From contig CALQZH010000002.1 in the NCBI GenBank assembly GCA_943349395.1, positions 25,745-84,408 of the forward strand: a stretch of DNA of 58,664 nt. Reading direction: 5' to 3'. Source of the stretch: Parcubacteria group bacterium. GTDB taxonomy: Bacteria > Patescibacteriota > Minisyncoccia > UBA6257 > UBA11618. A program made the translations under genes and the position numbers. Position 1 is the first letter of the stretch. Each line of letters begins with the position of its first letter. A model generated the notes under the pieces. The model was not told the origin of the DNA and made no database searches. It saw only the letters and a list, made by a program, of their open reading frames with translations. Shown here piece by piece: positions 1,001-50,407 of this stretch.

Positions 1001-3061
1001 ATGAAAATCAGCATTATTATAAGCGGATTATTAGGAGCTATTGTTTTGATAATTATCGGAGGAATAATATTTTTCAAACCAGAGGTCATTCAAAAACCCC
1101 TGAATGCTTATTTTCCAAAAGCCGACAGGACATTGAAAATAAGTGAAGCGGAGATGCGAAAGGGAGATGGATACGTATTTAAGACTGCGCTTGAAAAAGG
1201 CGTCGTGAAAATAACCGCCTCAGGATTGAGAATCGGCGGCGATGATTATGAGGCATCGGTTATGATGCCGCATGAAATCGTCTCCTCAACCGTTCCTCAA
1301 TCCCCCTTATTGGATTTTAAAGTGATTAAGAATGCAGGTGTAATTTATGTCCAAGACCCGTATGATACAACCTTTCATCTTTCCCCAACGGGCATTTTTC
1401 AAAAGAAACAGCTTTCTTTTCTCGATTTAGGATTTTCAGATATTGTAAATCTTTTGATTGATAAGGAAAAAGGGCTTGAACTAATCGCCAATCCTGAAGG
1501 ATTTACAGTCTCATTCTCATCGGATGATTTTCCGATTCCTTATTTTCCAGAATTTAAAAAAGCGAAAATTACCCTCATTATTGATAAAAAAACATATCTC
1601 GCAAAAAATCTAAATATAGAATGGCATGAGAACAATAGCGTTGTCGCAAAGCTTTCGGAAACATTTGAGAAGCCGAATAATCCGATCGTGATAAAAAAAC
1701 CAGAAAATATAAACCAGTTCGGTGATTTTTTGGCCCGTGAAAGCGTTTATTTAAGAACGGATGGCGATGGAATATATGATAATACATGGCTTGATTGGGA
1801 AAATAAATATTTTGACTGTCAGAGATGCGTTAATAAATATTGGGATAGTGATGGAGACGGATTAGTTAATATAAAGGAATTCATCTTCAATACGGATCCA
1901 AAAAAGCGAGATTCTGACGGAGATGGTGTAAATGATTATAAAGAGTTATTCGGAAAAACAAATCCAACGAACGACGATAAACTATCACTTAATTATTCGG
2001 AGGCGGCTGATTATCTTTTGTCTGGCGGCGAGCCGACGACAGATACAGGCGTATTGTCATCTAAATTTATAAAGAAAGCATTTGTAAGAGATTCATATGC
2101 GGGAATTGATAACTTGACTATACCAAAAGACGCCAAATCGCTTGTTTTAAGTTTTATTTTGGAGGGTAATGAGGAAGGGTCTACCTACTCAACCTTTTTC
2201 TTTGATGATGCGCTGATATTTAAGGCATCCCCGATAAGCGGACATAAGGTAACAGATCCATTTAATAAAGATTATGTGAGAACGGAAAGTATTCCGATCG
2301 GCCAATTTGCTGGCAAGAAGGTGAGATTTGTTCATATTTTGAATTCTTTTGGCAAACCAGGTGGGCAGGTTATGATATTACTTAATAAATCTTCGGGAAC
2401 TCTTGGTTCTTATATTGAAACCACCTCCAATCAAAAAATTCCACTTATAAAAAGCAAGGCGCAATTACAAGAGGAGATTGCTAACCTTTTTATAAATGAG
2501 CTAGCTAAGGCGTTAAGTCCTCTTTCGCAGCCTATTTCTTTAAATAAGCAATGGCAATTAAGCAAGTCATATAATGAACCAAGGACGGGCGTTTCCTTTC
2601 AATTGCCATCGGAATTCATTCTCGAGCCGTCATCTTTCTCCGGTGAATTCGTTTTTAAAACCAATGCTCCCCAAAAAGGAGTGTGGGAGGTGGTTATAAA
2701 ATTCGACGGATCGGATAAGAGCCCGATTGACGGCCAGACATACATGGATTATCTCAAGACACAAAAAGTTCGGCAGATTGGCCTTCAGTCGTTGCCAGCT
2801 CCTTGGCTGAGCTCAAAACCCGATAAGACTATTGCTGGAAGACAAGTCAAATCACTTACATCCTCAATTGGAGATACTAAGCAATTAGCTGCTGAAAGTG
2901 TTATTGAAATTAGCCCTGTAGCGGTGATGCATGTCATGGTTATTGGTTTCGATGCGTTTGATAAAGTTAGAGCCGCTTCAGGAGGAATGGGCTATAGTGA
3001 CGAATGGTTTAGTAATCTTAAGGACTTAAATGAATTGATAATAAGTAGCATTAAAAATTAA
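1001..3061 (+). CDS. membrane-anchored surface protein with thrombospondin type-3-like Ca-binding repeats
   Basis: 686 aa. The N-terminus has a TM segment (ISIIISGLLGAIVLIIIGGIIFF). DxDxDG repeats are present: WDSDGDGLVNIKEF, DSDGDGVNDYKELF, TNPTNDD. Codon usage is AT-rich like the rest of the island. Confidence 0.75.
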   Translation: MKISIIISGLLGAIVLIIIGGIIFFKPEVIQKPLNAYFPKADRTLKISEAEMRKGDGYVFKTALEKGVVKITASGLRIGGDDYEASVMMPHEIVSSTVPQSPLLDFKVIKNAGVIYVQDPYDTTFHLSPTGIFQKKQLSFLDLGFSDIVNLLIDKEKGLELIANPEGFTVSFSSDDFPIPYFPEFKKAKITLIIDKKTYLAKNLNIEWHENNSVVAKLSETFEKPNNPIVIKKPENINQFGDFLARESVYLRTDGDGIYDNTWLDWENKYFDCQRCVNKYWDSDGDGLVNIKEFIFNTDPKKRDSDGDGVNDYKELFGKTNPTNDDKLSLNYSEAADYLLSGGEPTTDTGVLSSKFIKKAFVRDSYAGIDNLTIPKDAKSLVLSFILEGNEEGSTYSTFFFDDALIFKASPISGHKVTDPFNKDYVRTESIPIGQFAGKKVRFVHILNSFGKPGGQVMILLNKSSGTLGSYIETTSNQKIPLIKSKAQLQEEIANLFINELAKALSPLSQPISLNKQWQLSKSYNEPRTGVSFQLPSEFILEPSSFSGEFVFKTNAPQKGVWEVVIKFDGSDKSPIDGQTYMDYLKTQKVRQIGLQSLPAPWLSSKPDKTIAGRQVKSLTSSIGDTKQLAAESVIEISPVAVMHVMVIGFDAFDKVRAASGGMGYSDEWFSNLKDLNELIISSIKN

Positions 3062-3072
3062 TTCCTACAAAT

Positions 3073-3717
3073 TTGACTAATTCTAATGACGTGCCAATAA
3101 TTAAAGGAGATATGAATAATGAGAATAATCAAATAATATCAGCATCCCAGTCACCGCAAGAGCATTATGTGATGCCGATGAAGCCGGTGAAAACTCGAAT
3201 TGGCATCGCTTTGCATGCTTATTTCCTATCGTTGTGGTTTATCGCTTTGGGAGGTGGTTATGCGTTTTTGAATATCGTATTTCGTGGTTTCGTTTGGGAT
3301 ATTAGCAAAATATGGGATTTTTTCGGTCTTTTTGGTATTTTCAGATTATATAGCGCCTTTTTTTCTGGAAATTCTGATAATATAACCGCTCAAGTTGTTA
3401 TTTTTTATATTTCTGGATTACTTGCCGCTGTGCCAATTTTAATCGTCAGTAAAAAAAGAATTAGCCGGTTATTAGGGGAAAAGCCGGATTTAGTGAATGA
3501 TATCTTTTATCGTCGCGCCGCACGTTCCAGTTTCTGGCTATCATTGGTAATGCTGGTTTTTTTAGTTGTAAGCAGAGTTTTCAGTATTCTCAATCAAGTC
3601 TTGGTTGAAACAAATGGAACCGCTCCGCAGCAGACGGCTAACTTGATCTTTTTAGGTATTCCTTTGGCGTTGATTTTGTATTCTTCTTGGAAGATATACA
3701 AGAAAAGCGCGACATAA
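3073..3717 (+). CDS. multi-pass membrane protein
   Basis: 214 aa with several hydrophobic spans (IGIALHAYFLSLWFIALGGGYAF, VVIFYISGLLAAVPILIV, FWLSLVMLVFLVV, LIFLGIPLALILY). The track start is TTG. An alternative ATG at 3112 follows AAAGGAG. Confidence 0.6.
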   Translation: MTNSNDVPIIKGDMNNENNQIISASQSPQEHYVMPMKPVKTRIGIALHAYFLSLWFIALGGGYAFLNIVFRGFVWDISKIWDFFGLFGIFRLYSAFFSGNSDNITAQVVIFYISGLLAAVPILIVSKKRISRLLGEKPDLVNDIFYRRAARSSFWLSLVMLVFLVVSRVFSILNQVLVETNGTAPQQTANLIFLGIPLALILYSSWKIYKKSAT

Positions 3718-3735
3718 TTTTAGCCTTAAAAGGCC

Positions 3736-4161
3736 TTATCTAAGAAGCGCTAACATCCTCTCCTTTTCCTCCTCCGTCAGCTCAGGGACTGCCGTAACCT
3801 CGTTAATGTTCTTAGATACCTCCGTAAGGCCGTGGTTGGCGCTCAGCATGAGCTTCGCGATAGCCGCATTGTATCTGCCCGCCAAGCCCTCATCGATAAG
3901 ACGGCAATACTGCTCGTTTTTTATGCTTCTCAAAGCGTCGGAAAAGTCGGGGTATCGTTTCGCCCATTCATACAGAGTATCTTTACTGACGTTAAGATAA
4001 CGCGCTAATCCCTCGACTTTCGGAAGATTTACCCGAAGATTCTTGCCGTCCTGTTCGTCGCTGCAAGATCGCAGGTAATTACCAACCTCCTCCAATATGC
4101 TGGGGCTATATAAAGTCGGCCTGCCGAATGATATGTATTTTTGCTTCTGTTGTACTGCCAT
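3736..4161 (-). CDS. phage terminase small-subunit-like HTH protein
   Basis: GRPTLYSPSILEEVGNYL ... EGLARYLNVSKDTLYEWAKRYPDFSDALRSIK ... AIAKLMLSANHG matches the pattern of the terS/gp3-type DNA-binding family. I take the ATG at 4161 rather than the TTG at 4173. Confidence 0.6.
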   Translation of the reverse strand: MAVQQKQKYISFGRPTLYSPSILEEVGNYLRSCSDEQDGKNLRVNLPKVEGLARYLNVSKDTLYEWAKRYPDFSDALRSIKNEQYCRLIDEGLAGRYNAAIAKLMLSANHGLTEVSKNINEVTAVPELTEEEKERMLALLR

Positions 4162-4347
4162 ATTGAATAACAATCGATTCTGCTTTAATTATAGCACTAA
4201 AACATAGTAATTACTTCACAGATCGATTAAAAAGGCCCTAAAATAAGCGAAGAGAAAGTCCCCGCCGGAAGTCGGTTGGGGGACTTGTATGCCGTCTCAC
4301 TTTCTAGTTACTGTATAAAGCTGGTGAAAATGGTAAATTGAGAGCAA

Positions 4348-4611
4348 ATGGATATGAAAATGGATAGTGAGGACGGAAAATCACCAAGAGCATATCATGC
4401 GCAGAAAAAGATTCTTTGCGTTTTAGAAAAAATAAAGGAAGGGTGGGATTTATTACCCGAGGATAGGGACTTACGAAAGCATAGTAGTACTTTTTATCAA
4501 TTAGTGAAAGAATGCGGTTTAGATAATTTTTATCAATTAGAGGATATTTTAGCTATTTTAAAACAGGACGGCCTTATAACAAGGTATGAGATTGATAATG
4601 AAGCCAGATAA
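4348..4611 (+). CDS. hypothetical small protein (island)
   Basis: 87-aa ORF, divergent from the terS-like gene and AT-rich. No motif recognised. Confidence 0.5.
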   Translation: MDMKMDSEDGKSPRAYHAQKKILCVLEKIKEGWDLLPEDRDLRKHSSTFYQLVKECGLDNFYQLEDILAILKQDGLITRYEIDNEAR

Positions 4612-4616
4612 TTAAT

Positions 4617-5192
4617 ATGGGTATGATCCTTACAATTAAACTTCCAAAAGATTTTGAGAAGCGTTATTTGGAATATAAAGCGAAGCTATCAGATAGTTTT
4701 CAAGAGGATGAATTTACGGATCATAAATTTTCTAAAAAATTACCTCGTGGAATACGATGGAATCAATTCATCATAGAATTTTTAGATGATGAAAATGTAT
4801 CAATTACTATTAGAGAGCATAAGAAGCAAAAAGCTAGTTTTATTGATATGAATTTTGAAGATAAGCGTAATGGTAAACCCAATCAACAGTGGTATTTATT
4901 AAAGAAGTTAGCTGATTATGAGGGGGAAATTGATTGGGATACAGCAGGGGCAAATAAAAAGCTTAAAAAATCTATCGGACTCCTTGCCGATGCTTTAAGG
5001 GATTATTTTAGTATGGATAGCGACCCATTTTATCCGTACGAAGAAATTTCTAAGATGAAAAATAAGAGATCTTATAAAACTCGATTTATTATTTTTTGTA
5101 GTCAAGATTATTTAGCTAATCATACCATTCAAAAAAATAACGATAACCTTAAACAAGAAATAGAAGACATATTTAGGGATAATACTTTTTAA
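4617..5192 (+). CDS. hypothetical protein (island)
   Basis: 191-aa ORF starting 5 nt after the previous stop. The terminator at 5210-5233 follows. No motif recognised. Confidence 0.55.
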   Translation: MGMILTIKLPKDFEKRYLEYKAKLSDSFQEDEFTDHKFSKKLPRGIRWNQFIIEFLDDENVSITIREHKKQKASFIDMNFEDKRNGKPNQQWYLLKKLADYEGEIDWDTAGANKKLKKSIGLLADALRDYFSMDSDPFYPYEEISKMKNKRSYKTRFIIFCSQDYLANHTIQKNNDNLKQEIEDIFRDNTF

Positions 5193-5209
5193 AGCATTTT
5201 GTCAGAAAT

Positions 5210-5233
5210 AACCGCCAATAATGGCGGTTTTTG
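5210..5233 (+). terminator. intrinsic terminator
   Basis: AACCGCC-aataat-GGCGGTT followed by TTTGT. Confidence 0.6.
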
Positions 5234-5289
5234 TATTGGTGAATTTTCACCGCTATTTTTTTCAGGGCGGTGATTTTTCGCCATTAAGC

Positions 5290-5565
5290 ATGAAAGCCAT
5301 GCAAGTAAAGAATGAAATTTTAAAAACTTCTGACTTTGAAAGGATATCTGACTTAGATTTAGTAGTTGTTGCCTCACTCTCATTTTCTATAGAGGCGATC
5401 GATCGCGACCCAAAGGAATATCCTCGGGTCGTTTTCCTGTTCAAAAAGACGCCGGAATTGGAAGTTCTTATCCAAGCGTATTGGAACGGCCAGCTTTCGT
5501 GCGAGCCGCAGGCGTTATTCGGTCAGCTCCGGCGGATAAAGTCGAGAATTTACAACAATCAATGA
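5290..5565 (+). CDS. DUF5659-like protein
   Basis: SDLDLVVVASLSFSIEAIDRDPKEYPRVVFLFKKTPELEVLIQAYWNGQLSCEPQALFGQLRRIKSRIY fits the DUF5659 pattern seen in phage and mobile-element proteins. I take the ATG at 5290 inside the longer track ORF. Confidence 0.55.
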   Translation: MKAMQVKNEILKTSDFERISDLDLVVVASLSFSIEAIDRDPKEYPRVVFLFKKTPELEVLIQAYWNGQLSCEPQALFGQLRRIKSRIYNNQ

Positions 5566-5577
5566 AGGATATTTATC

Positions 5578-5727
5578 ATGCTTACGATCGAGCGCGTACG
5601 ACAATTACTGAACGATCCGGCCATTACGGACGAGACGGCGGAAGATATCCGCGACGGATTCCGCGCGCTCATCGAAGACATAATTTTCCCCGCATGGCTC
5701 GAAACAAATAAACACAAACATGAATAA
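5578..5727 (+). CDS. small hypothetical protein (49 aa), translationally coupled
   Basis: MLTIERVRQLLNDPAITDETAEDIRDGFRALIEDIIFPAWLETNKHKHE. It is below the track's size cutoff. Its stop overlaps the next start (ATGAATAA). Confidence 0.4.
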   Translation: MLTIERVRQLLNDPAITDETAEDIRDGFRALIEDIIFPAWLETNKHKHE

Positions 5728-5917
5728 CAAATCATTCGCCGAAGATATTGAGTTCTTGGAGCTTTTGCGCGGGGCTTTGCGTATTGCATATGGTATGGAT
5801 TTTTCAATTAAACAGATACAAGAAGCGCATCTCATTGCCGAGCTTACCGCCGCCATTTTTCAGGATTCCTTGGATAAGATCTATAAGAAAAAATACGGCG
5901 GCCAAACATCAATATGA
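5720..5917 (+). CDS. small hypothetical protein (65 aa)
   Basis: Its start overlaps the upstream stop, and its stop overlaps the PrimPol start (ATGA). Confidence 0.5.
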   Translation: MNNKSFAEDIEFLELLRGALRIAYGMDFSIKQIQEAHLIAELTAAIFQDSLDKIYKKKYGGQTSI

Positions 5918-8187
5918 ATATCCAAGATTTAAAAACGAATCTCGACTGGGCCTTATATTACCGCAGCATCGGTTGGAGTCCTATTCCCGTTAAGCTACGG
6001 GACAAGACGGCCCTTGTCCCATGGAAGCAATACCAGACCGAGATCGCGAGCGAGGAGCAGATACGGGAATGGTGGACAAAGTACCCCGATGCCAATATCG
6101 GAATCGTTACGGGCAAAGTGTCCGGCATTGCGGTGGTCGATATCGAAAAGGGGGGCGATACGAAGGGCTTGCTGCCGACTGTCATGGCCAATACCGGCGG
6201 CGGTGGCTTCCATTTCTTTTACAAGTATCCGAACGCGGGCATTCAAAATGCAGTGAGGATTCGAGAGAAAACCGACATACGGGGCGACAGGGGTTATGCG
6301 GTCGTTGCCCCGTCAGTGCATAAATCCGGCAAGCGTTACTCATGGGCGGTCGCCCCCGAAGAAGCCACGCTCGCGGAATTCCCGCAGTGGATTCTTAAGC
6401 AGGCTACTGATCATCATAAGGAAAAAACCGATTGGAATGCGTTTTTAGGAACCCAAAATTTGGAGGGTACGAGACACCAACAGGCGACCATGCTCGTTGG
6501 CAAGCTTTTGCATGAAATATCGAGCGATATGTGGGATGCCGTCGGTTTGCCGGCATTGCATGCTTGGAATGGTTCTAAAAATATCCCGCCGCTTCCGGAT
6601 AAGGAACTTATGACGATATGGGAGGATATAAAGAAAGCCGAGTTTGAGCGTAGGGTGCGTGATGAAGAAAGCCCCTCAAGACGGACTCCAAATAATCAGG
6701 CAGTAAGGCTTATAAACCTCATTAAAAAGCAAGAGAAAATAGTTTTCTTTCATAATGATCTTAAAGAACCATTCGTGCAGATAATGGTTGGAGGGCATAT
6801 AGAAATATTGTCATGCAAGGATAGGATGCTGAAGCGATGGCTTGCTAGGATTTTTTGGAATGCATATAAAGACGTTCTTAATAACGAATCATTAAAGACG
6901 GCGATTAATATTATAGAAAGCGAGGCCTGCTTTGATGCGGATCAGCATATTCTATATAACCGTGTTGCGGAACATGACGGGGCTATATGGTATGACCTTG
7001 CAGATCCGGCGTGGCGAGCTGTGAAAATAACACCAGACGGATGGAATGTAGTTACTGATGTTCCGATATTATTCCGGCGGTATCCGCATCAGCAAGCACA
7101 AATAGAGCCAACACAGGGTGGTGATGTAAAAGAATTTTTAAAGCTCGTAAATATCCAAGACGAAGACCATAAGATAGTATTGCTCGTCTGGATCGTATCT
7201 TGTTTTATCCCAGATTTTCCGCACCCCATACCGAACTTTTATGGAGCGCAGGGATCGGCTAAGTCGTTTCTATCCAAGTTTTTACGAAAGCTGATAGATC
7301 CGTCTCGTATTGAGGCGATGAGTTTCCCTAAGGATACGAACGAGCTTGCGCAGGTATTATTCCATCATCATTGCGTTTTCTTTGACAATGTTTCTCATTT
7401 GCCGGATCAGGTGTCCGACGCGCTTTGTAAGGCGGTGACCGGTGATGGATTATCAAGGCGTACGTTATATACCGACGAGGAAGACACGATCTTTTCTTTT
7501 CAGCGATGCCTCGGTATTAATGGCATTAATATTGCGGCCAAGAATCCCGACTTGCTCGAAAGGAGCATTCTTTTTGAGTTGCAGCGAGTGCCACCGAGCC
7601 AAAGAAGGCAGGAGGGTGAGCTATTGGAATGCTTTGAAAATGAACGTCCTAGGATCATGGGGAGTATTTTTGATGCGGTGGCGAAAGCCATGCGCATTAA
7701 GCCTTCCGTGAAGATTAATAATCTTCCGCGCATGGCGGATTTTACCGTATGGGGGTGCGCCATTGCCGAAGCGCTTGGTTATACGCAGGGGCAGTTTCTC
7801 GACGCTTACTATAGGAACATCAAACATCAGAATGCGGAGGTTTTATATGATAGCCCGTTAGCCTGCGCTGTACTTGGTTTTATGGAGACGGTGAATATAT
7901 GGGAAGGCACACCGACGGAATTACTTCAGGAGCTTACGAACGTTGCGCAGGGGCAAAATATTGATTTGGCGCAGGAAAAAGATTTCCCCAAGAAGGCAAA
8001 CGTATTAACTCGCATGTTAAACAAGCTGAAAACTAATTTGGCTAACGAGGGAATAGAATTTAAAAACAGCGCCGAACAAAGAGGGCGAAGAGCATATCTT
8101 CGCAAGATAACGGAAGACGCGGCATCTATTCAGGAGCCACTAAAGGAGCATGAAAACGATGATAACGGTATTTTACCCCTACTTTAG
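5914..8187 (+). CDS. bifunctional primase-polymerase (PrimPol) fused to a P-loop helicase-like domain
   Basis: PrimPol motifs are present: GWSPIPV, ANIGIVTGKVSGIAVVDIE, GGGFHFFYKYP, DIRGDRGYAVVAPSVHKSGKRYSW. The C-terminal half has Walker A (YGAQGSAKS) and a Walker-B-like HHCVFFDNV. Confidence 0.85.
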   Translation: MNIQDLKTNLDWALYYRSIGWSPIPVKLRDKTALVPWKQYQTEIASEEQIREWWTKYPDANIGIVTGKVSGIAVVDIEKGGDTKGLLPTVMANTGGGGFHFFYKYPNAGIQNAVRIREKTDIRGDRGYAVVAPSVHKSGKRYSWAVAPEEATLAEFPQWILKQATDHHKEKTDWNAFLGTQNLEGTRHQQATMLVGKLLHEISSDMWDAVGLPALHAWNGSKNIPPLPDKELMTIWEDIKKAEFERRVRDEESPSRRTPNNQAVRLINLIKKQEKIVFFHNDLKEPFVQIMVGGHIEILSCKDRMLKRWLARIFWNAYKDVLNNESLKTAINIIESEACFDADQHILYNRVAEHDGAIWYDLADPAWRAVKITPDGWNVVTDVPILFRRYPHQQAQIEPTQGGDVKEFLKLVNIQDEDHKIVLLVWIVSCFIPDFPHPIPNFYGAQGSAKSFLSKFLRKLIDPSRIEAMSFPKDTNELAQVLFHHHCVFFDNVSHLPDQVSDALCKAVTGDGLSRRTLYTDEEDTIFSFQRCLGINGINIAAKNPDLLERSILFELQRVPPSQRRQEGELLECFENERPRIMGSIFDAVAKAMRIKPSVKINNLPRMADFTVWGCAIAEALGYTQGQFLDAYYRNIKHQNAEVLYDSPLACAVLGFMETVNIWEGTPTELLQELTNVAQGQNIDLAQEKDFPKKANVLTRMLNKLKTNLANEGIEFKNSAEQRGRRAYLRKITEDAASIQEPLKEHENDDNGILPLL

Positions 8188-8256
8188 GATTATGGACTTG
8201 CATGGTATTATAAAAGCGTTGATCCATAGTCTTAGCGAAACGCCCGAGATTTTTTG

Positions 8257-8298
8257 TTGCATCGCCACCCCAAAGGGGCGGCTATGCCGACGATGCAA
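8257..8298. promoter_or_regulatory. nested palindrome upstream of the recombinase gene
   Basis: TTGCATCG ... CGATGCAA (8257-8264 / 8291-8298) encloses the hairpin GCCaCCCCaaaGGGGcGGC (8264-8282). It lies about 55 nt upstream of the recombinase ATG. Confidence 0.35.
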
Positions 8299-8352
8299 TC
8301 CCTCGGGAATGCGGACTTGGATCAACCTTAGCCGTCCCTTTGGGGTTTTATT

Positions 8353-9903
8353 ATGAAAGGAATTATATACACCAGAGTCTCGAGCGAGGAACAGATTAAG
8401 GGGACTTCGCTCGACGATCAAGAGGCGCGTTGCCGCAAATATTGTGACGATAGCGGCATTGATGTCCTTAAGGTATTCAGGGAAGAAGGCGCGTCGGCAA
8501 AGACCATTGACCGGAAGATATTGCTTGAAGCGATGGAATTCTGCCGGAAGAACAAGGGGAAGATTGGTGCTTTTATTGTATGGAAAGTGGATCGGTTTGC
8601 CCGTAATACGGAAGACCATTTTGCGGTACGCAAAATCCTTACGGACTACGGCGTTACCTTGCGCTCCGTAACGGAACCGATCGGCGATAATCCTGCGGAA
8701 AAGCTCTTTGAAACGATACTTGCCGGCTTCGCCCAGTTCGATAACGCCATCCGCAAGCAACGATGCTCTAATGGCATGCTGGCCCGTTTGCGGCAGGGCA
8801 TTTACCCATGGAAGCCGCCGATCGGCTACGTTGCCCTCGGAGCGAAGAAACGCGGGGAGAAGAAAACGGGGCCGGATCCGATCCACGAAGAGATATTTCC
8901 TATTTTGCAAAAAGGATTGCGTGCCTATGCGGACGGCGTTTTCACTTCTCAAATTGAATTTGCCAAAGGACTTGATACATGGGGCTTGGCGAAAATCACG
9001 GGCAAGAAAACGACCGCGGTGGTCGCGGGCAGATTACTCGGGTGCTATCTGAATTTCTATGCCGGTATATTCATCGATCCCGAAACGGGCGCGGAGATAC
9101 AGGCGCTGCACAAACCGATGCTTACGCGTGAAGAAATATATAAGATCCGGCTCGTCCGATCCGGCAAGACATGTAATAACTTCCGCAGGAACAAGTTTAA
9201 TCCCAATTTCCCGTTACGCAGGACGGCCATGTGCGCCTGTTGCGGCAAATCCCTTACGGGCAGCACCTCGCGTGGTAATGGCGGGCAGTATCCGTATTAT
9301 CATTGCTCGACTAAGGGATGTTCCATGTTCGGCAAGAGCGTAGCTAAGAAGGATATTGAGGAGAACTTTATCCGGCACTTGCAGCAAATTACGCCAAAGG
9401 ATAAATGGCTCGCGGTATTTACGGAGACGGTATTGGACGTATGGGAAGAAAAGGGCAAAAGCTTCGTGCTTGATGCGGAAGCTTACGAAAAACAGCTTAA
9501 TGCGCTCTTGAAGAAGAAAACCGCCATCCGCGATCTCCTTGAAGACGGCACGTACGACAAGGAAACGGGCAAGGAACGCCTCGCGGAGATTGAGAATCAG
9601 GTTATGGCTGCGAAGATATCCCTGAGCGAAGCGCGGATAGAGCAATTCGACATAGAGGGAGCGTTGTCGTACGCGACGAATTTCATAAAAGATCTCGGCA
9701 GGCAGTGGTTTGATCTACCAGCACAGCTCCGTCCGCGGTTTCAAAGATTGGTATTTCCGGCAGGGTTGCCCTATTCGCGTACTTCCGGATTTGGAACCGC
9801 GCAATTAGGGCTTATTTACGAGATAAATCGAACGTCTGAGGGTGATTTATCTCACGTGGTGGACCCAGCGAGAATCGAACTCGCGTCTCCTCATTGCAAA
9901 TGA
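8353..9903 (+). CDS. large serine recombinase (integrase)
   Basis: Resolvase catalytic N-terminus (GIIYTRVSSEEQIKGTSLDDQ), recombinase domain, Zn-ribbon (CACCGKSLTG...YYHCSTKGC) and a coiled-coil region. The last ~15 codons (VVDPARIELASPHCK) are the antisense of tRNA-Ala. Confidence 0.9.
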   Translation: MKGIIYTRVSSEEQIKGTSLDDQEARCRKYCDDSGIDVLKVFREEGASAKTIDRKILLEAMEFCRKNKGKIGAFIVWKVDRFARNTEDHFAVRKILTDYGVTLRSVTEPIGDNPAEKLFETILAGFAQFDNAIRKQRCSNGMLARLRQGIYPWKPPIGYVALGAKKRGEKKTGPDPIHEEIFPILQKGLRAYADGVFTSQIEFAKGLDTWGLAKITGKKTTAVVAGRLLGCYLNFYAGIFIDPETGAEIQALHKPMLTREEIYKIRLVRSGKTCNNFRRNKFNPNFPLRRTAMCACCGKSLTGSTSRGNGGQYPYYHCSTKGCSMFGKSVAKKDIEENFIRHLQQITPKDKWLAVFTETVLDVWEEKGKSFVLDAEAYEKQLNALLKKKTAIRDLLEDGTYDKETGKERLAEIENQVMAAKISLSEARIEQFDIEGALSYATNFIKDLGRQWFDLPAQLRPRFQRLVFPAGLPYSRTSGFGTAQLGLIYEINRTSEGDLSHVVDPARIELASPHCK

Positions 9904-9930
9904 GGTGTTCTGCCATTTAACTACGGGCCC
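9857..9930 (-). tRNA. tRNA-Ala (anticodon UGC), CCA encoded
   Basis: The cloverleaf was folded by hand. Anticodon arm CCTCA-TTTGCAA-TGAGG gives UGC. G3:U70 and A73 are Ala identity elements. T-arm GCGAG-TTCGATT-CTCGC. Confidence 0.9.
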
Positions 9931-10021
9931 TTTTCTCGTACTAGAGTAGCCTAAACCGACATTCTGGGCAATCGCGGATTTGCGCCCGAAAGATAATTCG
10001 CGGCATACTCGTACTACTCAT

Positions 10022-12624: not shown

Positions 12625-12751
12625 ATGCGAATGCGACATGCGCCGGGCATTTCCCCGGCACGCCGTCACGTCAGAAATGAACGTGGCGGTTTTTTCATGT
12701 GCCAAAAAGCCCGGCGCATGGCCGGGCTCCTTATCGTTCCCAGAGATCGGT

Positions 12752-12973
12752 CTAGTACTGGTTCGTCTGGAACGTGCTCGGCCACGTCATGCTCATATTG
12801 CTTCCGCTATCGATGCCGCGCGTCGCGTAGTAGTATAGCGTGTTCGATTGGAGGTTGTTGAGCGTTATCGTGTGGGCCATCTGCATGCCCGTGCCGTCCG
12901 TGGCGAAGACGCCGCTGATATAGGGCAAGGGCAGGTTCGGGCCGGTCTCCTCATCCGCGCGGCTCCCGGTCAC
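12752..12973 (-). pseudogene. 5'-truncated FN3/purple-acid-phosphatase-N-like domain fragment
   Basis: A 73-aa remnant ending ...HTITLNNLQSNTLYYYATRGIDSGSN...FQT. It has no signal peptide or N-terminal domain. An in-frame stop lies immediately upstream, and its own terminator follows at about 12700-12730. Confidence 0.4.
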
Positions 12974-12974
12974 C

Positions 12975-13137
12975 TACCAGAAGGCGATGCGCATGCGGTA
13001 TGTCGAAGACATGTCGTTCGCCGAGATGTCCTTGGCGACGGGGCAGACGAAAAACGCGCTCGCGGTTCAGGTGCATCGGGGCTTGGCGAAGCTGAAGATC
13101 CTCTACCATTGCGGAGCGAAAGGGACGGAGAAGGCGT
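12975..13137 (+). pseudogene. sigma-70 (ECF-type) region-4 fragment
   Basis: YQKAMRMRYVEDMSFAEMSLATGQTKNALAVQVHRGLAKLKILY is a region 4.2 HTH. Regions 2 and 3 are absent. An in-frame TAG at 12921 leaves no room for them. Confidence 0.5.
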
Positions 13138-13159
13138 AGGAGAGTGATATGATAAGAGG

Positions 13160-13438
13160 ATGCCGTTCCATCTGGCGGGCGCGGGCATCGCTCTCGCGCT
13201 CATCATCGAAGCCGCGACGCTCATGTGCCGTATGGGCTTTCGTCTGCGGAGCGCAGAAATCCAGCGTCGCCTGCACGTGCCGCGTATCCACCATTCGTAT
13301 ATAGGCGTCTTTTTGCTCGCGCTCGGTCTCATCGCGCCGCACGAGTGGCTCTTCGTGCTCGGTATCGCGTTCGTCCTGTCGGACGCCGTTCACCACGCGC
13401 TCATGGTGCCGATGATAGGGGGCGGGAGAAAGGGGTAG
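13160..13438 (+). CDS. small membrane protein (possible anti-sigma remnant partner)
   Basis: 92 aa with three hydrophobic spans. AAGAGG lies upstream of the ATG. The position downstream of the sigma fragment is the only functional hint. Confidence 0.45.
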   Translation: MPFHLAGAGIALALIIEAATLMCRMGFRLRSAEIQRRLHVPRIHHSYIGVFLLALGLIAPHEWLFVLGIAFVLSDAVHHALMVPMIGGGRKG

Positions 13439-13440
13439 AT

Positions 13441-13456
13441 GGAAGGATTCGCCTCT
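13441..13456. repeat. 16-bp direct repeat GGAAGGATTCGCCTCT (copy 1)
   Basis: Identical to 14273-14288. GGAAGGATTCG is the reverse complement of the tRNA-Ser T-loop/T-stem. Confidence 0.8.
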
Positions 13457-14272
13457 TGCCCCGCTCTATTTTTTATCTGCTCGCTTTTGCCTCTTAGCGA
13501 GATTTGATATTAAATTAGCATATATGAAAAATTCCCAAAAAGGATCGGGGATTGTTATATCGATAGTGATAATCGCGCTGTTAGTGATTGCAGGGGGCAT
13601 ATATCGCTATTCGCAACGAGATAAAGCTCAAGTGATTGAAGATGCTATCAGCATCGATTCTGATACGAGACAGCTCTTAGGCCCTGAACAGTATAAATAT
13701 AAAGAAGGGAGCAATTCATATCTTGATCTCTCCGCAGAAATTTCGAAATCAGGCGGTCTGAATCTGAAACAGCCGACCACATTCGTTACCTACGAGAATA
13801 AAGACAGGGGAATAGAGTTCTCTGTTCCTTATAATCCTGCATGGGGTTCCGCAAAATACAAAATCGCACCGTACGAATATGAAAAGGGCCTAGTTACTGA
13901 TAAAGGCGCTGATGATGAAAAAATAATCTTCGGTCCAATTCAGCCATGGGAAGGAGGTGGCTTGGCTCGTTTGCAATCCCTATCTTTCATACCTGCGCGC
14001 ACCGCCGACTCCCTTATGGAAAATACTCTTGCTGTTGTGAAAACAGAAAAGAAGAGAATTAATGGATTGGAGGTGGTAGAATTTTCCGGAGGCGAGTTTT
14101 GTGGCTATTCCTATATAGAAATTATTGGGGAAAAATACAACTATATCCTCTCTGATGGTTGTGATAATTCATATAACGCACCCGACAATCCGTCTCCTAT
14201 CGATATGAGATATTTGGAAGGATTAGTCGAAAAAATGAAATTGATCTAAGAAGGGCAAGGTCGGCCATGGTA
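13457..14272 (+). mobile_element. single-gene AT-rich cassette bracketed by the 16-bp direct repeats
   Basis: The composition is clearly lower in GC than the flanks. It holds exactly one ORF and has identical 16-mers at both ends. Confidence 0.45.
13524..14249 (+). CDS. membrane-anchored hypothetical protein (cassette gene)
   Basis: 241 aa with an N-terminal anchor (GIVISIVIIALLVIAGGIY). AT-rich codon usage unlike the neighbours. Confidence 0.7.
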   Translation: MKNSQKGSGIVISIVIIALLVIAGGIYRYSQRDKAQVIEDAISIDSDTRQLLGPEQYKYKEGSNSYLDLSAEISKSGGLNLKQPTTFVTYENKDRGIEFSVPYNPAWGSAKYKIAPYEYEKGLVTDKGADDEKIIFGPIQPWEGGGLARLQSLSFIPARTADSLMENTLAVVKTEKKRINGLEVVEFSGGEFCGYSYIEIIGEKYNYILSDGCDNSYNAPDNPSPIDMRYLEGLVEKMKLI

Positions 14273-14400
14273 GGAAGGATTCGCCTCTCCCTCTCCGCCA
14301 TTCGCCGCCTGGCGGAGGCGGATCGGTCGAGGTCGCTGTTTTCATAGTCGGCGGAACGCCTTCTTGAAAACAGGGGACCTACGGTTCGAATCCTTCTTCG
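14273..14400 (+). repeat. tRNA-convergent structured element, copy a (partner: tRNA-Ser)
   Basis: The 5' GAAGGATTCG pairs with the 3' CGAATCCTTC. The core is CGGTCGAGGTCGCTGTTTTCATAGTCGGCGGAACGCCTTCTTGAAAACAGGGGACCTACGGTTCGAATCC. It is shared with copies c and d2. Confidence 0.65.
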
Positions 14401-14409
14401 GCTCTCATC

Positions 14410-14453
14410 TAATACAAAGAGGGATGGTTCTAGAACCATCCCTCTTTGTATTA
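14410..14453. terminator. bidirectional hairpin between element a and tRNA-Ser
   Basis: taatacaaagagggatggttc/tagaaccatccctctttgtatta, a perfect palindrome ending 2 nt from the tRNA 3' end. Confidence 0.65.
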
Positions 14454-14455
14454 GG

Positions 14456-14542
14456 CGGAAGCGGAAGGATTCGAACCTTCGATACCGTTTCCGGTATACT
14501 GCATTTCGAGTGCAGCCCATTCAACCGCTCTGGCACGCTTCC
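14456..14542 (-). tRNA. tRNA-Ser (anticodon CGA), long variable arm, no encoded CCA
   Basis: Acceptor GGAAGCG/CGCTTCC. Anticodon arm CTGCA-CTCGAAA-TGCAG. Variable arm TATACCGGAAACGGTATC. T-arm GAAGG-TTCGAAT-CCTTC. Confidence 0.9.
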
Positions 14543-21824: not shown

Positions 21825-21896
21825 GGGCGCATAGTTCAGTGGTAGAACGCCATACTGATAATATGGAGGTCGAAGGTTCGATTCCTTCTGCGCCCA
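21825..21896 (+). tRNA. tRNA-Ile (anticodon GAU)
   Basis: Acceptor GGGCGCA/TGCGCCC. Anticodon arm CCATA-CTGATAA-TATGG. T-arm GAAGG-TTCGATT-CCTTC. Confidence 0.9.
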
Positions 21897-21900
21897 CACA

Positions 21901-21943
21901 GTTTTAAAATAGGACCCGTTATACTCGGGTCCTATTTTAAAAC
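21901..21943. terminator. bidirectional hairpin after tRNA-Ile
   Basis: gttttaaaataggacccg-ttatac-tcgggtcctattttaaaac. Confidence 0.65.
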
Positions 21944-21949
21944 TGTCTA

Positions 21950-22123
21950 GGTACATAGAGGAGGAATCGAACCGCGGGCCGCAGGCTCCGAATAGGAGCC
22001 GAAGGTTCCGAGCCGCATAGGCGGCGAGGGGCGATTCCTTCTTCATTGCTGATTATAAAAATGACATGTCTCGACCGATCTACTAGTGAGTAGAGAGGAA
22101 GAGGCGATTCCTTCTGCGCCCAC
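21950..22123 (-). repeat. tRNA-convergent structured element, copy b (two tandem units; partner: tRNA-Ile)
   Basis: The far end carries a 19-bp direct repeat of the tRNA-Ile 3' end (22105-22123 = 21879-21897). An inner partial repeat lies at 22032-22042. The 40-nt block 21970-22009 is identical to 35339-35378 in reverse complement. Confidence 0.65.
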
Positions 22124-22162: not shown

Positions 22163-22438
22163 ATGGAAGACGTAGTGAAAAAAACAGTGAATGTGTCTAC
22201 GTGCATGGGTTCATTCGAATGCGTTTTGACGCATAATGATCCTGATAAGGGATATACGGTTACGGTTCCCAGATTGAAAGGGGTGGTGACATTCGGAGAT
22301 GATGAGAGAGAGGCTGTGCGTATGGTTCGGGAGGCCATAGAATTGCATTGCGGATGTCTTTTGGAAAAAGGCCTTGCCGAGGTTCGTCCGAAGCGCAAAG
22401 AAGCGGTACGGGGAAAAAGCATTGCAGTTCGCAAGTAG
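22163..22438 (+). CDS. hicB: HicB-family antitoxin
   Basis: GYTVTVPRLKGVVTFGDDEREAVRMVREAIELH matches the HicB/UPF0150 N-terminal fold pattern. It lies directly upstream of hicA. Confidence 0.7.
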   Translation: MEDVVKKTVNVSTCMGSFECVLTHNDPDKGYTVTVPRLKGVVTFGDDEREAVRMVREAIELHCGCLLEKGLAEVRPKRKEAVRGKSIAVRK

Positions 22439-30188: not shown

Positions 30189-30269
30189 GCCCAGGTGGCG
30201 AAATGGCAGACGCACTACCTTGAGGTGGTAGCGCCGCAAGGCATGGAGGTTCGAGTCCTCTCCTGGGCA
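30189..30269 (+). tRNA. tRNA-Leu (anticodon GAG)
   Basis: Acceptor GCCCAGG/CCTGGGC. Anticodon arm CTACC-TTGAGGT-GGTAG. 13-nt variable arm. T-arm GGAGG-TTCGAGT-CCTCT. Confidence 0.9.
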
Positions 30270-30270
30270 C

Positions 30271-30306
30271 AAATATAAAGACCCCTTTCAAGGGGTCTTT
30301 ATATTT
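30271..30306. terminator. bidirectional hairpin after tRNA-Leu
   Basis: aaatataaagacccctt/aaggggtctttatattt palindrome, starting 1 nt after the tRNA. Confidence 0.65.
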
Positions 30307-30308
30307 GT

Positions 30309-30482
30309 GCCTTGCGTGAGAGGAATCGAACCGGATAGGTTCCCTGTTTGTTCAAGAGCGAAGCGATTGACGCACAAACAGCAATGCCGCACCGTAGTGC
30401 GGCCCCCCAAGTTTTCAAGAAGGCCTCGGGCCGACTATGAAAACAGCGACTTCGACCGGAGGGAGAAGCGAGTCCTCTCCTG
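30309..30482 (-). repeat. tRNA-convergent structured element, copy c (partner: tRNA-Leu)
   Basis: A 14-bp direct repeat of the tRNA-Leu 3' end (30469-30482 = 30252-30265). The end-pairing is GAGAGGAATCG (30318-30328) with CGAGTCCTCTC (30469-30479). It has the same core as copies a and d2 plus a second hairpin, CTGTTTGT...ACAAACAG. Confidence 0.65.
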
Positions 30483-35184: not shown

Positions 35185-35215
35185 GGGGAGAGTATGCCAT
35201 GGAAAAATGGGTAGA

Positions 35216-35486
35216 GGGAGTCGCCCCTCGCCGCCTCAGGGTAAAAGAAATAGATCGTCGTCATCGCTTCGCTCCTTTCCGACGTGATTTTAAAATTCAA
35301 ACCTCTTCGCTTCGCATATCGGGATAATTTTAAAATCAGGAACCTTCGGCTCCTATTCGGAGCCTGCGGCCCGCGGTTAATGACAGGGGGAGTCGCTTCT
35401 CCCTTCGGTCGAAGTCGCTGTTTTCATAATCGCCCCGCGAGCCTCCTTGAAAATAGGGAGCCTTCGGTTCGACTCCCGCCCGCTTC
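35216..35486 (+). repeat. tRNA-convergent structured element, copy d (units d1 35216-35384 and d2 35385-35486; partner: tRNA-Gly)
   Basis: d2: AGGGGGAGTCG (35385-35395) repeats 35536-35546 of the tRNA-Gly locus. GGGAGTCG pairs with CGACTCCC (35470-35477). The core is shared with copies a and c. d1 shares TCGCCCCTCGCCGCCT and a 40-nt block with copy b. Confidence 0.65.
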
Positions 35487-35527
35487 AAATAATAAAAGCC
35501 GCTCACGAAGAGCGGCTTTTATTATTT
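35487..35527. terminator. bidirectional hairpin between element d and tRNA-Gly
   Basis: aaataataaaagccgctc-acgaa-gagcggcttttattattt. Confidence 0.7.
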
Positions 35528-35528
35528 G

Positions 35529-35600
35529 AGCGGGTAGGGGGAGTCGAACCCCCATTGACAGGTTGGAAACCTGTCGTATTAGCCGTTATACGATACCCGC
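35529..35600 (-). tRNA. tRNA-Gly (anticodon UCC)
   Basis: Acceptor GCGGGTA/TACCCGC. Anticodon arm ACAGG-TTTCCAA-CCTGT. T-arm GGGGG-TTCGACT-CCCCC. Confidence 0.9.
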
Positions 35601-50219: not shown

Positions 50220-50335
50220 GAGATGCCTCCTTGGGCAAAAGGGTGATCGGTACGTGTTTTCGAAGGGCGTTAAGAGCCGCCTCTATGATACGTTTTTAGG
50301 ACGATTGCGTCAACGATATTGATTGTCGGGATGCC

Positions 50336-50400
50336 GGGAATCGCCGCCCCATTGCATGGGGCGAGCCTCGCCTCGATACGATCGAGGCGGGAACCTTAGG
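50336..50400 (+). repeat. reduced tRNA-convergent element, copy e (partner: tRNA-Pro)
   Basis: It starts GGGAATCG|CCGCCCC. GGAATCG is the reverse complement of the tRNA-Pro T-loop/stem. Hairpins GCCCC-attgcat-GGGGC and CGCCTCGAT-acg-ATCGAGGCG are present. It ends GGGAACCTTAGG, like the other copies. Confidence 0.4.
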
Positions 50401-50407
50401 ATATTTG

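Follow-up and report, generated by a model that had tools for sequence, protein, structure and literature searches.

Patescibacteria have tiny genomes in which few mobile elements are recognised, and their route of gene acquisition is puzzling for that reason. Among the described systems that come closest to the locus reported here are islands at tRNA genes; those that cross over in the T-loop are classically marked by a direct repeat that begins in the T-loop and runs to the 3' end of the tRNA. We have analysed a 58.7-kb stretch of patescibacterial DNA (the window), in which a low-GC segment with a single gene, the cassette, is framed by two copies of a 16-mer next to a tRNA-Ser gene. The locus is one instance of a recurrent tRNA-anchored structure, built from small folded units, that marks the accumulation of foreign DNA with no local recombinase.

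Like tRNA islands, CIMEs and the tycheposon arrays of Prochlorococcus, the units use the 3' part of a tRNA as anchor and carry direct repeats that start in the T-loop. They form serial repeats with older material farther out, are accompanied by foreign cargo and lack a recombinase of their own, as do some members of those classes. However, they are just 95-180 nt long, possess a conserved folded core and hold inverted as well as direct copies of the tRNA tail; the ends vary with the tRNA while the core is identical. Their inner repeats are 11 nt long, and older units are truncated, not displaced intact. A T-loop-class island is recognised by a tail repeat distal to the tRNA and by presence or absence among relatives; both are seen here (the former with 11 nt only at the Ser copies, the latter at L153, L156, L015 and L018), but no integrase lies inside the element. 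Att-type repeats without recombination genes, the hallmark of a CIME, are present.

The integron cassettes, with their attC sites and CALINs, offer a second comparison. Here too a single, apparently promoterless ORF lies by an imperfect palindromic site of 60-180 nt, arrays are formed, the integrase is possibly distant, and the structure of the site is conserved beyond the sequence of its stem. The preliminary description had loosely likened the locus to cassette capture in integrons. The likeness holds as a structural analogy, a folded site of 100-180 nt by a single ORF, but it extends no further. IntI, attI and Pc are absent, and the termini are copies of the adjacent tRNA T-arm instead of RYYYAAC/GTTRRRY (R''/R') cores. 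The element is multi-hairpin and not a single bulged hairpin, and a close homologue of the ORF occurs without the same site; the site does not travel with the ORF.

A target-like site, a short insert, an inverted target-like site, a structured spacer of about 100 nt and again a target-like site is also the layout of CTX-phage and IMEX insertions, and by analogy there may have been repeated insertion at a regenerated site with a recombinase supplied in trans. As in IMEX, the inverted target-like sites fold to a target-like duplex. The target, however, is a tRNA T-loop and not dif with XerCD, and the stems differ among copies; further features of CTX/IMEX, namely a role of Xer, a phage genome and a single-stranded stage, have no known counterpart here. 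With MITEs and casposons the units share their small, non-autonomous and multicopy nature, terminal inverted repeats and a long duplication of the tRNA 3' end. Casposons produce a duplication of 14-15 bp, whereas the duplication here is 19 nt with fixed ends (C56, C74). The terminal inverted repeats of MITEs, which are conserved among copies and match those of an autonomous element, have no counterpart: here the repeats are fitted to each target and vary from tRNA to tRNA around shared cores. Neither a transposase nor a casposase was found with the units. Finally, the omega-RNA of IS200/IS605 TnpB likewise consists of a structured scaffold of about 100 nt followed by 16-20 nt specific to the insertion site, but TnpA, TnpB and IscB genes are absent here, Rfam gives no match, and the site-specific segment is paired with the other unit end and not free.

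Results

The array at tRNA-Ser is anchored on a tRNA-Ser(cga) gene on the minus strand (14454..14542, left bound 14454/14456). It is followed by a loop-less 22+22 palindrome (14410..14453) that lies between it and the first unit and resembles a bidirectional terminator hairpin. The inverted repeat of this palindrome spreads outward into the 3' ends of both the tRNA and the unit (arms I1, 36 nt and 86% complementary; I2, 23 nt and 83%). The first unit, SerA ("element a"), occupies 14273-14398 on the plus strand and is a complete A-type unit by its fold, its shared core and its pairing ends. Its 5' stem GGAAGGATTCG is followed by the conserved core, and the T-loop-like 3' end, GGTTCGAATCCTTCT (14383-14397), folds back onto that stem and pairs with it. 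The predicted fold has an energy of -67.8 kcal/mol (z = -4.6), and the core motif is also found in the Leu and Gly copies. Beyond SerA follow the cassette (13457..14272, plus strand) and the outer copy of the 16-mer. This order of tRNA, hairpin, element a, cassette and repeat is the one given in the preliminary description.

The 16-mer GGAAGGATTCGCCTCT occurs in exact copies on the plus strand at 13441-13456 and 14273-14288, and the second copy is the 5' end of SerA, just as had been stated. Near-matches with up to three mismatches number 5, against a mean of 1.0 expected from shuffles. The repeat had further been taken for a reverse complement of the tRNA-Ser T-arm. This is right for nucleotides 1-11, GGAAGGATTCG, which are the reverse complement of CGAATCCTTCC, that is, of positions 70-80 of the 89-nt tRNA-Ser gene starting at C56 of the T-loop (C56-C66). 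It is wrong for the last five, CCTCT, which do not derive from the tRNA and are the conserved start of the folded-element family. Since the 16-mer is composed of 11 tRNA-specific and 5 family-start nucleotides, successive element starts would share it by descent, and a cassette-specific recombination is then unnecessary. Both Ser copies stop short of the tRNA acceptor sequence (identity 12/19 and 14/19). A 92-aa ORF is closed by a terminator-like hairpin with a T-run, and the outer copy falls in the loop and 3' arm of this hairpin. Downstream of it, CGCCTCTTGCC resembles the unit starts CGCCTCTCCC (SerA, L089, L111) and CGCCTCTTCC (outer unit at Ile). We read the outer 16-mer as the probable remaining 5' start of an outer, truncated unit; as similarity to the units past the 16-mer is not significant, the label "truncated unit" rests on a resemblance over about 10 nt.

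The cassette had been described as an AT-rich segment with a single gene, and it has a GC content of 0.414, compared with 0.611 in the left and 0.588 in the right flank. Outside the island at 1-10000 it is the 816-bp stretch of lowest GC in the window (others: minimum 0.417, median 0.602). Its sole ORF (13524..14249, plus strand) has a GC3 of 0.39, whereas neighbouring genes range from 0.75 to 0.86. The compositional check proposed earlier could have found the segment typical of its genome; instead its composition is foreign. The ORF encodes a 241-aa protein of an uncharacterised family, membrane-anchored by an N-terminal hydrophobic helix. Three close homologues share 55-83% identity, and a profile search returned 378 cluster representatives at E<=1e-3. 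The C-terminal domain, which spans about 140 aa, is conserved, and longer relatives have it fused to PsbP_2. Searches of the protein against Pfam and NCBIfam gave no match; an AlphaFold model built from 4 sequences was unusable (pLDDT 36). A blastn comparison with phages and plasmids was negative.

The homologues lie in other contexts. In L009, which carries the 83% homologue, DNA homology (86%) sets in only 2 nt ahead of the ATG and ceases at the stop codon; as nothing beyond the ORF is shared with the window, the gene travels without a common att or flank. The 66% homologue (P0003) lies on unitigs of about 917 bp with a 27-nt repeat at both ends, which is the T-loop-like end of a B-like unit; a convergent A-like unit also belongs to this locus, which comes from the SRR12053438-41 / ERZ1305449 community. 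None of the relatives retrieved has the gene at the tRNA-Ser/ParA locus, so the opposite outcome, a syntenic gene without repeats in all relatives, is not what is seen. We consider horizontal acquisition of the 241-aa gene, within a compositionally foreign 816-bp segment, to be supported.

The units are folded elements of 95-180 nt that lie 3' of tRNA genes on the strand opposite the tRNA. The 5' start of each is formed by 11-19 nt that can pair with the tRNA next to it, in the stretch that runs from C56 of the T-loop toward the 3' end. Next come a family-specific start (CGCCTCTCCC in the A type, CGCCCCTCGCC in the B type) and a conserved folded core, and the 3' end consists of a T-loop-like GGTTCGAnTCC plus T-stem. 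Since the 5' start is complementary to the tRNA and the 3' end is T-loop-like, the two unit ends pair, and the resulting duplex copies the T-arm and acceptor segment of the tRNA gene. The termini (GGAAGGATTCG ... GGTTCGAATCCTTC) vary from tRNA to tRNA, and each unit folds into a closing stem with two or three hairpins. A bidirectional terminator hairpin usually separates the unit from the tRNA. About a dozen unit copies were examined, and the structure was assessed on 6 of them. In these, 89.5% of the cells are paired, compared with 34-56% when the structure is slid along the alignment, and covariation is 0.246 against 0.099 in shuffles. The core helices P2/P3 are supported. The closing stem of 10-19 bp is 96.6% paired, and 4/10 of its pairs differ on both sides between loci, with ends that track the local tRNA. 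The A-type core gave 3 matches where 0 were expected, and the B-type cores at Ile and Gly are identical over 38 nt, or over 40 nt when compared by BLAST. In Rfam 15, at the gathering threshold and at E<=10, only tRNAs reach their gathering score; miRNA-like matches fall on the palindrome, and the best match on SerA is Archaea_SRP with 18.9 bits against a threshold of 96.5.

The same architecture is found at 4/7 tRNAs of the window (Ser, Ile, Leu and Gly). In the tRNA-Ile array (21825..22123, plus strand) the tRNA (21825-21897) is followed by a hairpin (21898-21946) and then, on the minus strand, by a B-type unit (~21947-22045) with an inner 11-nt repeat at 22032-22042. Beyond it lies an A-type unit truncated to its 5' half (22043-22104), and the final 19 nt of the tRNA are repeated without mismatch at 22105-22123. 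At tRNA-Leu (array 30189..30482, plus strand; tRNA 30189-30270) a hairpin is followed by one A-type unit on the minus strand (30307-30482), which ends in a 14-nt tRNA copy from C56 (30469-30482). The tRNA-Gly array (35205..35600, minus strand; tRNA 35528-35600, hairpin 35488-35527) holds two units of plus sense, an A-type unit (35385-35482) and a long B-type unit (~35205-35384) whose end falls exactly at GCGGTT. In the outer repeat of this B-type unit (35205-35223), 15/19 positions agree with the tRNA tail. We rejected the idea that a tandem duplication of the tRNA left the inverted copy as its 5' half, as the loop part at tRNA-Ile is AATCGAA (the reverse complement) and not TTCGATT. Ser, Ile and Gly have head-to-tail stacks of units, in which the outer members are truncated on the side proximal to the tRNA. 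At tRNA-Ser the inner unit is complete and the outer one is reduced to its first 16-30 nt, with the low-GC segment in the rest of its slot. The nested loci at Ser, Ile, Gly and L018 are alike in that the inner unit has an 11-nt stem and the outer unit is truncated. At tRNA-Pro (50325..50406, minus strand), AAGGTTCC, a hairpin and then GGGGCGG|CGATTCC...CCGAC may, as read by eye only, be a decayed B-like remnant.

Twelve tRNAs (on 8 non-redundant sequences) are followed downstream by a copy of the tRNA from C56, and no such copy lies upstream; the junction is always xx|CGA. Seven copies are perfect 19-mers (C56-C74): the Ile copy of the window and those of L049, L062, L065, L089, L093 and L111. 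The layout recurs on unrelated metagenome contigs, behind tRNAs of at least five kinds (Ser, Ile, Leu, Gly, Arg; degenerate at Cys). In the relatives L153 and L156 the repeat units are absent at the orthologous tRNAs. Two others with 87-89% ParA identity, L015 and L018, have different unit types at tRNA-Ser and lack the cassette gene. In L089, the same tRNA-Ile/HicB locus of a relative, the A unit is intact; the window carries B and half of A at this place. Three independent assemblies give an identical sequence through both 16-mers (source samples of the window: ERR5863124, ERR5863125, ERZ27280317); an allele that differs by the cassette alone was not found among the assemblies compared.

A scan of genome contigs with the A-type core TATGAAAACAGCGACYTCGAC returned one match, which we judged to be chance, since it falls within coding sequence of an Acidobacteria MAG and has no tRNA in its vicinity. 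The pattern TTTTCATARTCGN{8,16}YCTTGAAAA matched at least 120 loci in metagenomes, nearly all of them AT-rich chance matches. A-type sequence is present on four of the matched contigs, namely L079/L089 (the same tRNA-Ile locus), L111 and, in part, the end of L044; four further matched contigs carry C-type units elsewhere. In viral contigs the pattern gave 14 loci, and 0 of these has a T-loop-like end or a tRNA tail repeat.

The preliminary description had noted that no integrase lies nearby. In the ORFs of the window there is indeed no tyrosine integrase (Phage_integrase) and no Xer gene, but a large serine recombinase is encoded at 8353-9903, 3.5 kb away, in a separate tRNA-Ala island. Integrase fragments were not found beside the units, and no cognate integrase-bearing element was found in 70 kb of the source contig or in the loci of the relatives.

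Discussion

The explanation that we favour, with about even confidence, is that the two 16-mers are the 5' starts of successive small, non-coding and recombinase-less units inserted directly 3' of tRNA genes, and that the cassette is foreign DNA between them. The unit adjacent to the tRNA would be the newest, and the cassette would have come to lie between two unit starts of an accretion array anchored at the tRNA, either brought in with them or trapped there. Identity over the 16 bp would reflect the shared tRNA specificity (11 nt) together with the family start (5 nt), and no att core specific to the cassette would be involved. Insertion may be site-specific and fall on U55|C56, or beside this step, in the T-loop or in a T-loop-like sequence. 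Catalysis might be provided in trans by an enzyme encoded beyond the window, and the folded ends might mimic the target duplex, similar to the integron attC or the hairpin attP of the CTX phage. Accretion at the tRNA, as proposed in the preliminary description, is supported: repeats of the tRNA 3' end are found solely downstream of tRNAs and several are in tandem, which is what accretion at a tRNA-anchored site predicts. The part of that proposal that treats the 16-mer as a pure T-arm att core does not stand. Our literature searches did not find a description of such units, and small recombinase-less elements that stack behind tRNA genes are apparently undescribed.

A rather unlikely alternative is that the cassette itself is mobile, either as a circle with one GGAAGGATTCGCCTCT that recombined with the 5' end of SerA or by a transposition that duplicated 16 bp, so that the copies are attL/attR or a target duplication. 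The 16/16 identity that is lost at once on either side fits this, as does the coincidence of the repeats with the composition boundary, and without the cassette the 92-aa ORF would abut an intact SerA. Joining the cassette ends around a single repeat would also place GGGCAAG (14254-14260) opposite CTTGCCC (13455-13461) in a 7-bp stem, a post hoc observation with an estimated chance of about 2%. However, the homologue in L009 is alike in the ORF only, and no enzyme is at hand. Unit-start repeats exist also at Ile (13 nt) and at Gly with no ORF in between, and a cassette-specific event is therefore not required. To our knowledge, a 16-bp target duplication is unknown among bacterial transposons.

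The units could also be genes for small structured RNAs, with ends that imitate the acceptor/T-arm helix of the neighbouring tRNA for tRNA-like processing or an antisense role, the 241-aa gene having landed between two of them. We regard this as unlikely. Conserved core hairpins with compensatory changes and a conserved internal loop speak for an RNA, the G.U pairs of P3 and P4 suit the strand opposite the tRNA, units end at a bidirectional terminator or at their own stem with a T-run (L089), and the opposite-strand 3' end in L049 reads ...GGCGCACCA. On the other hand, neither an Rfam match nor a convincing promoter is present, and the folding energies of most copies favour the tRNA-sense strand. 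RNA genes alone leave the perfect 19-nt direct repeats, the truncated stacks and the presence/absence among relatives unaccounted for, and they are compatible with mobility and not exclusive of it.

Quite improbable in our view is the reading of the units as remnants of classical integrase-bearing T-loop-class islands, deleted down to their arms, with the cassette as leftover cargo; the attP of each island would have carried the identity block between C56 and the 3' end. The tRNA-Ala island of the window does carry a recombinase, the direct repeat from the T-loop to the 3' end fits islands with a T-loop crossover, and tycheposons provide a precedent for tandem islands with scattered partial tRNAs (10.1101/2020.12.28.424599). 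Independent deletions would not, however, yield uniform sizes and boundaries at six tRNAs. The B cores at Ile and Gly are identical over 38-40 nt although their ends are matched to different tRNAs, classical attP arms hold no inverted copy of the target, and no integrase fragment adjoins any unit.

Chance or an assembly artefact can practically be dismissed: although a long palindrome lies at the locus and short-read (Logan) unitigs end within 14410-14453, the three independent assemblies agree through both repeats, and an exact 16-mer is unexpected by chance and is part of a recurrent pattern. Readings as tmRNA, SRP RNA, a Y-RNA-like RNA, a hammerhead or a T-loop intron were dropped for wrong size, lack of a model match or a terminator in the middle of the element; we also know of no splicing endonuclease for T-loop introns in Bacteria.

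Insertion of successive units, the explanation favoured here, leaves the form of the junctions to be accounted for. Plain serial integration predicts at each inner repeat a full 19-nt tail followed by the hairpin of the older unit. The inner repeats instead end at 11 nt and the proximal parts of older units are missing, so the junctions are not reproduced by simple serial integration. Nor does an att sequence borne by the element account for identical cores with differing tRNA-matched ends. Gene conversion between old loci is an unlikely source of the identical B cores, because the patches of 13 nt and 38-40 nt stop exactly at the tRNA-specific termini. It might be, and we consider this rather doubtful, that the A, B and C units are a class of miniature mobile elements or mobile RNA genes whose ends are written anew with every insertion and so come to match the 3' 11-19 nt of the tRNA gene in front. 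The local tRNA tail would then act as a templated "address" paired to a conserved scaffold, through guide-like target copying or hairpin-templated synthesis, and such units would occasionally import or trap single genes. We know of no target-copying mechanism of this kind for bacterial elements.

If the units are mobile in trans, there is a new integration system to look for, and if the tRNA-matched ends are written at insertion, this would be a new mode of target specification. For genome analysis the arrays matter in two further ways. Short-read assemblies break at the long inverted repeats around tRNA 3' ends, and repeats of 19 nt could pass for island boundaries.

Folded units behind tRNA genes

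Each tRNA sequence of the window was searched against the window and the resulting loci were then read. Behind tRNA-Ser, Ile, Leu and Gly the same layout is found. In the orientation of the tRNA, the gene gives way to a hairpin that resembles a terminator. Next come the T-loop and 3' T-stem in inverted copy (...GGATTCG|AACC...) and a core 80-150 nt long, and last a direct copy of the tRNA that begins at C56. We term the folded element a unit. On the strand opposite the tRNA, a unit starts with 11-19 nt complementary to the tail, that is the 3' part of the tRNA, and ends with GGTTCGAnTCC plus T-stem, so that its two ends pair.

The units of the window fall into two core families. The type A core ATGAAAACAGCGACYTCGACCG (tRNA sense) occurs three times in the window, where no copy is expected, in units at tRNA-Ser (14273-14398), tRNA-Leu (30307-30482, within an array at 30189-30482) and tRNA-Gly (35385-35482, within an array at 35205-35600). 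Type B units lie in the same Gly array (about 35205-35384) and at tRNA-Ile (about 21947-22045, within an array at 21825-22123), and share a core of 38 nt (40 nt by BLAST). These B cores are 100% identical over 38-40 nt, yet their ends match different tRNAs; both ends of the units track the local tRNA. A possible B-like remnant, decayed and read by eye, lies behind tRNA-Pro (50325-50406) and ends in a degenerate copy of the tRNA-Pro tail (about 13/19). Neither tRNA-Ala nor tRNA-Val of the window is followed by a unit, and BLAST of all units against the window detected no copies other than those at tRNAs.

Folds of single sequences show a long closing stem with two or three hairpins. Across six A-type copies 89.5% of cells are paired, against 34-56% when the partners are slid, and covariation scores 0.246, compared with 0.099 for shuffles, none of 500 reaching the observed value. 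The closing stem is 96.6% paired while its sequence varies with the tRNA, and the P3 hairpin carries compensatory changes from CUGUUUUC/GAAAACAG to CGAUUUUC/GAAAAUCG. No Rfam family matches the units. Signals for the strand are mixed: some of the G.U pairs speak for the strand opposite the tRNA, but the tRNA-sense strand has the better total folding energy more often.

Stacking, truncation and turnover

At Ile, Gly and Ser, and in the related contig L018, units form head-to-tail stacks on the opposite strand to the tRNA. The inner unit, which adjoins the tRNA, is complete; its short leader, which reads CCATGGTA at Ser, GCAATGA at Ile and TTAATGAC at Gly, precedes exactly 11 tRNA-specific nt. 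Outer units are truncated on their tRNA-proximal side: the outer A unit at Ile ends after ...ATAATCAGC, one unit of L018 after the equivalent ...ATAGTCGGC, and the Gly B unit exactly after GCGGTT. The tRNA tail is more fully preserved in the outermost copy (19/19 at Ile, 15/19 at Gly, 14/19 at Ser) than in the inner one. At Ile, 13 nt (AGAAGGAATCGCC) are common to both unit starts.

The tRNA-Ile/HicB locus of another relative (L089, and L079) holds one intact A unit with a perfect flanking 19-nt repeat. Comparison with L089 shows tRNA-Ile, A unit, HicB as the ancestral order; in the lineage of the window a hairpin and a B unit have replaced the proximal half of A. The HicB-like antitoxin gene (22166-22435) lies directly past the outermost tRNA-Ile repeat in a lower-GC stretch of ~1 kb, as it does in L089.

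The ParA of this Patescibacterium, encoded at the tRNA-Ser locus, has 64-69% identity to proteins that bear the name Candidatus Harrisonbacteria. In L015-17 (ParA 87%) tRNA-Ser is followed by a B-like unit and the gene for the 241-aa protein is missing. In L018 (ParA 89%) tRNA-Ser is inverted relative to parA and accompanied by one complete A unit, two truncated unit starts and three tail repeats in tandem (15, 13 and 11 nt); the inverted module of tRNA-Ser and unit spans 628-1043 and has duplicated unit halves. The inversion, the tandem repeats and the duplicated halves are evidence of repeated rearrangement at unit sites. Behind the orthologous tRNAs of L153 and L156 (ParA 73% and 77%) no repeat units were found, although tRNA-Ser of L156 may be followed by a decayed trace. 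Among relatives, units have therefore been both gained and lost.

The layout is also seen at tRNA-Arg of an unrelated contig (L111). A third core family, type C, was met by chance on further unrelated contigs (L049, L062, L065 and L093) behind tRNA-Arg, Leu, Ser, and Leu and Cys, with 19-nt repeats that are perfect except at tRNA-Cys (17/19). In L093 (615-1200) the neighbouring cluster tRNAs Cys and Leu are each followed by a separate C-type unit whose tail repeat matches that tRNA. When up to one mismatch was allowed in the first 12 nt, 12 tRNAs on 8 of the non-redundant sequences examined had a tail repeat downstream, and no tRNA had one upstream. Units thus occur only on the 3' side of tRNAs, and the junction is always directly before C56. 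Perfect repeats all comprise C56-C74, even in L049, where CCA is gene-encoded.

The low-GC cassette at tRNA-Ser

The preliminary description had reported an AT-rich, single-gene segment between exact 16-bp direct repeats next to tRNA-Ser(cga) (14454/56-14542, minus strand), and both observations hold. The 16-mer GGAAGGATTCGCCTCT is present at 13441-13456 and 14273-14288, with identical sequence in three independent assemblies. The segment between the copies is foreign in composition, with a GC of 0.414 against 0.611 and 0.588 in the flanks; it is the lowest-GC 816-bp window when the low-GC island at 1-10000 is left out. Its single ORF (13524-14249, 241 aa, hydrophobic helix at the N-terminus) has a GC3 of 0.39 against 0.75-0.86 in adjacent genes.

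The proposed derivation of the 16-mer from the T-arm is correct for its first 11 nt only. Complementarity to tRNA-Ser is limited to CGAATCCTTCC, which takes in five bases at the end of the T-loop, the 3' strand of the T-stem and one further base, while the last 5 nt, CCTCT, are non-tRNA sequence. The same make-up, 11 tRNA-specific nt plus a family start, is shared by successive unit starts in other arrays, and hence the 16-bp identity requires no cassette-specific recombination. The outer 16-mer is followed by CGCCTCTTGCC, which resembles the unit starts CGCCTCTCCC and CGCCTCTTCC; past the 16-mer this copy has no significant similarity to any unit. Most simply, we infer, the outer 16-mer once began an older unit, the body of which has given way to the low-GC segment.

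Between the ABC transporter and the cassette (12625-13440) only short ORFs are found, and a lone sigma-70 region 4 fragment of 50 aa (12987-13139) suggests gene decay beside the array. On the other side, the interval between the complete A unit and tRNA-Ser contains a loop-less perfect 22+22 palindrome (14410-14453). The short-read unitigs L002 and L003 stop at 14387, within the larger inverted repeat around it, which indicates that loci of this type fragment assemblies.

Close homologues of the 241-aa protein are few (83%, 66% and 55% identity); a profile search retrieved 378 cluster representatives at E<=1e-3. They share a conserved C-terminal domain of about 140 aa, to which PsbP-like domains are joined in the longer proteins, and the product is therefore a membrane-anchored, probably extracytoplasmic member of an uncharacterised family. 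The homologues have a GC of 0.33-0.37, and in L008 the gene belongs to a row of genes on a single strand in a low-GC organism, which suggests a low-GC donor.

In L009, which carries the 83% homologue, the DNA homology (86%) runs from 2 nt before the ATG to the stop codon and the flanks are unrelated. The 3' contig ends of L009 and L010 carry Illumina adapter sequence (AGATCGGAAGAGC...), so that the downstream context of the 83% homologue is an assembly artefact. The 66% homologue, P0003, comes from the same metagenomes as the relative with 87% ParA identity and lies on a contig behind a P-type ATPase, not at parA. It is found on short unitigs (916-994 bp) in four Logan assemblies, and three of the four (916-919 bp) carry an identical stretch of 27 nt at either end. 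This stretch, GTTCTAACATCCTCCACGATGCGGAGC, is the T-loop-like 3' terminus of a B-like unit. Beyond it lie a hairpin and an A-like unit in convergent orientation in one context, and different sequence in another. A relative of the 241-aa gene is thus likewise bracketed by unit-derived repeats, in variable context.

Possible mechanism

We infer site-specific insertion at the U55|C56 step by an enzyme working in trans, with paired unit ends mimicking the target duplex, by analogy to integron attC or the hairpin attP of CTX phage. The integrated order of the latter (site, insert, inverted site, spacer, site) is the order seen here. Three features, namely identical cores with different tRNA-matched ends, the 11-nt inner repeats and the proximal loss in older units, are only partly accounted for by any one of a classical attP-borne identity block, target-site duplication or gene conversion. 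That target-matched unit ends represent a truly new mechanism is possible but rather unlikely.

Closest among known systems are tRNA-anchored island accretion and its integrase-less derivatives, such as CIMEs and tycheposon arrays, the latter showing scattered partial tRNAs (10.1101/2020.12.28.424599). The earlier proposal of accretion at the tRNA is partly supported by the recurrent, tRNA-anchored stacked units, but taking the 16-mer as a T-arm-derived att core needs correction. So does the likeness to integrons: units resemble attC/CALIN and IMEX hairpin sites by structural analogy only, and depart from integrons, MITEs and IMEX alike in defining features. A literature search found no description of such units, which does not prove that none exists.

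Recombinases and the tRNA-Ala island

Pfam scans and contig annotations covering all sizeable ORFs revealed no tyrosine recombinase, transposase, reverse transcriptase or Cas1-like protein. The sole recombinase is a large serine recombinase of the XisF/Ccr-like type (8353-9903), at the end of a low-GC island (545-9903, GC 0.30-0.51) that abuts tRNA-Ala (9857-9930, minus strand), a tRNA without an A, B or C unit; the 3' ends of the recombinase gene and the tRNA overlap. No far-end att repeat was found for this island. It carries Prim-Pol (5914-8187) and, on the minus strand, a GP3_package-like gene (3736-4173), and has the look of an integrative element of the satellite or tycheposon-like kind.

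Elsewhere in the window a TatD-family DNase is split into adjacent ORFs (44485-44808 and 44863-45261), one matching the N-terminal and the other the C-terminal part of the Pfam model, which could be due to a frameshift, a pseudogene or a sequencing error.
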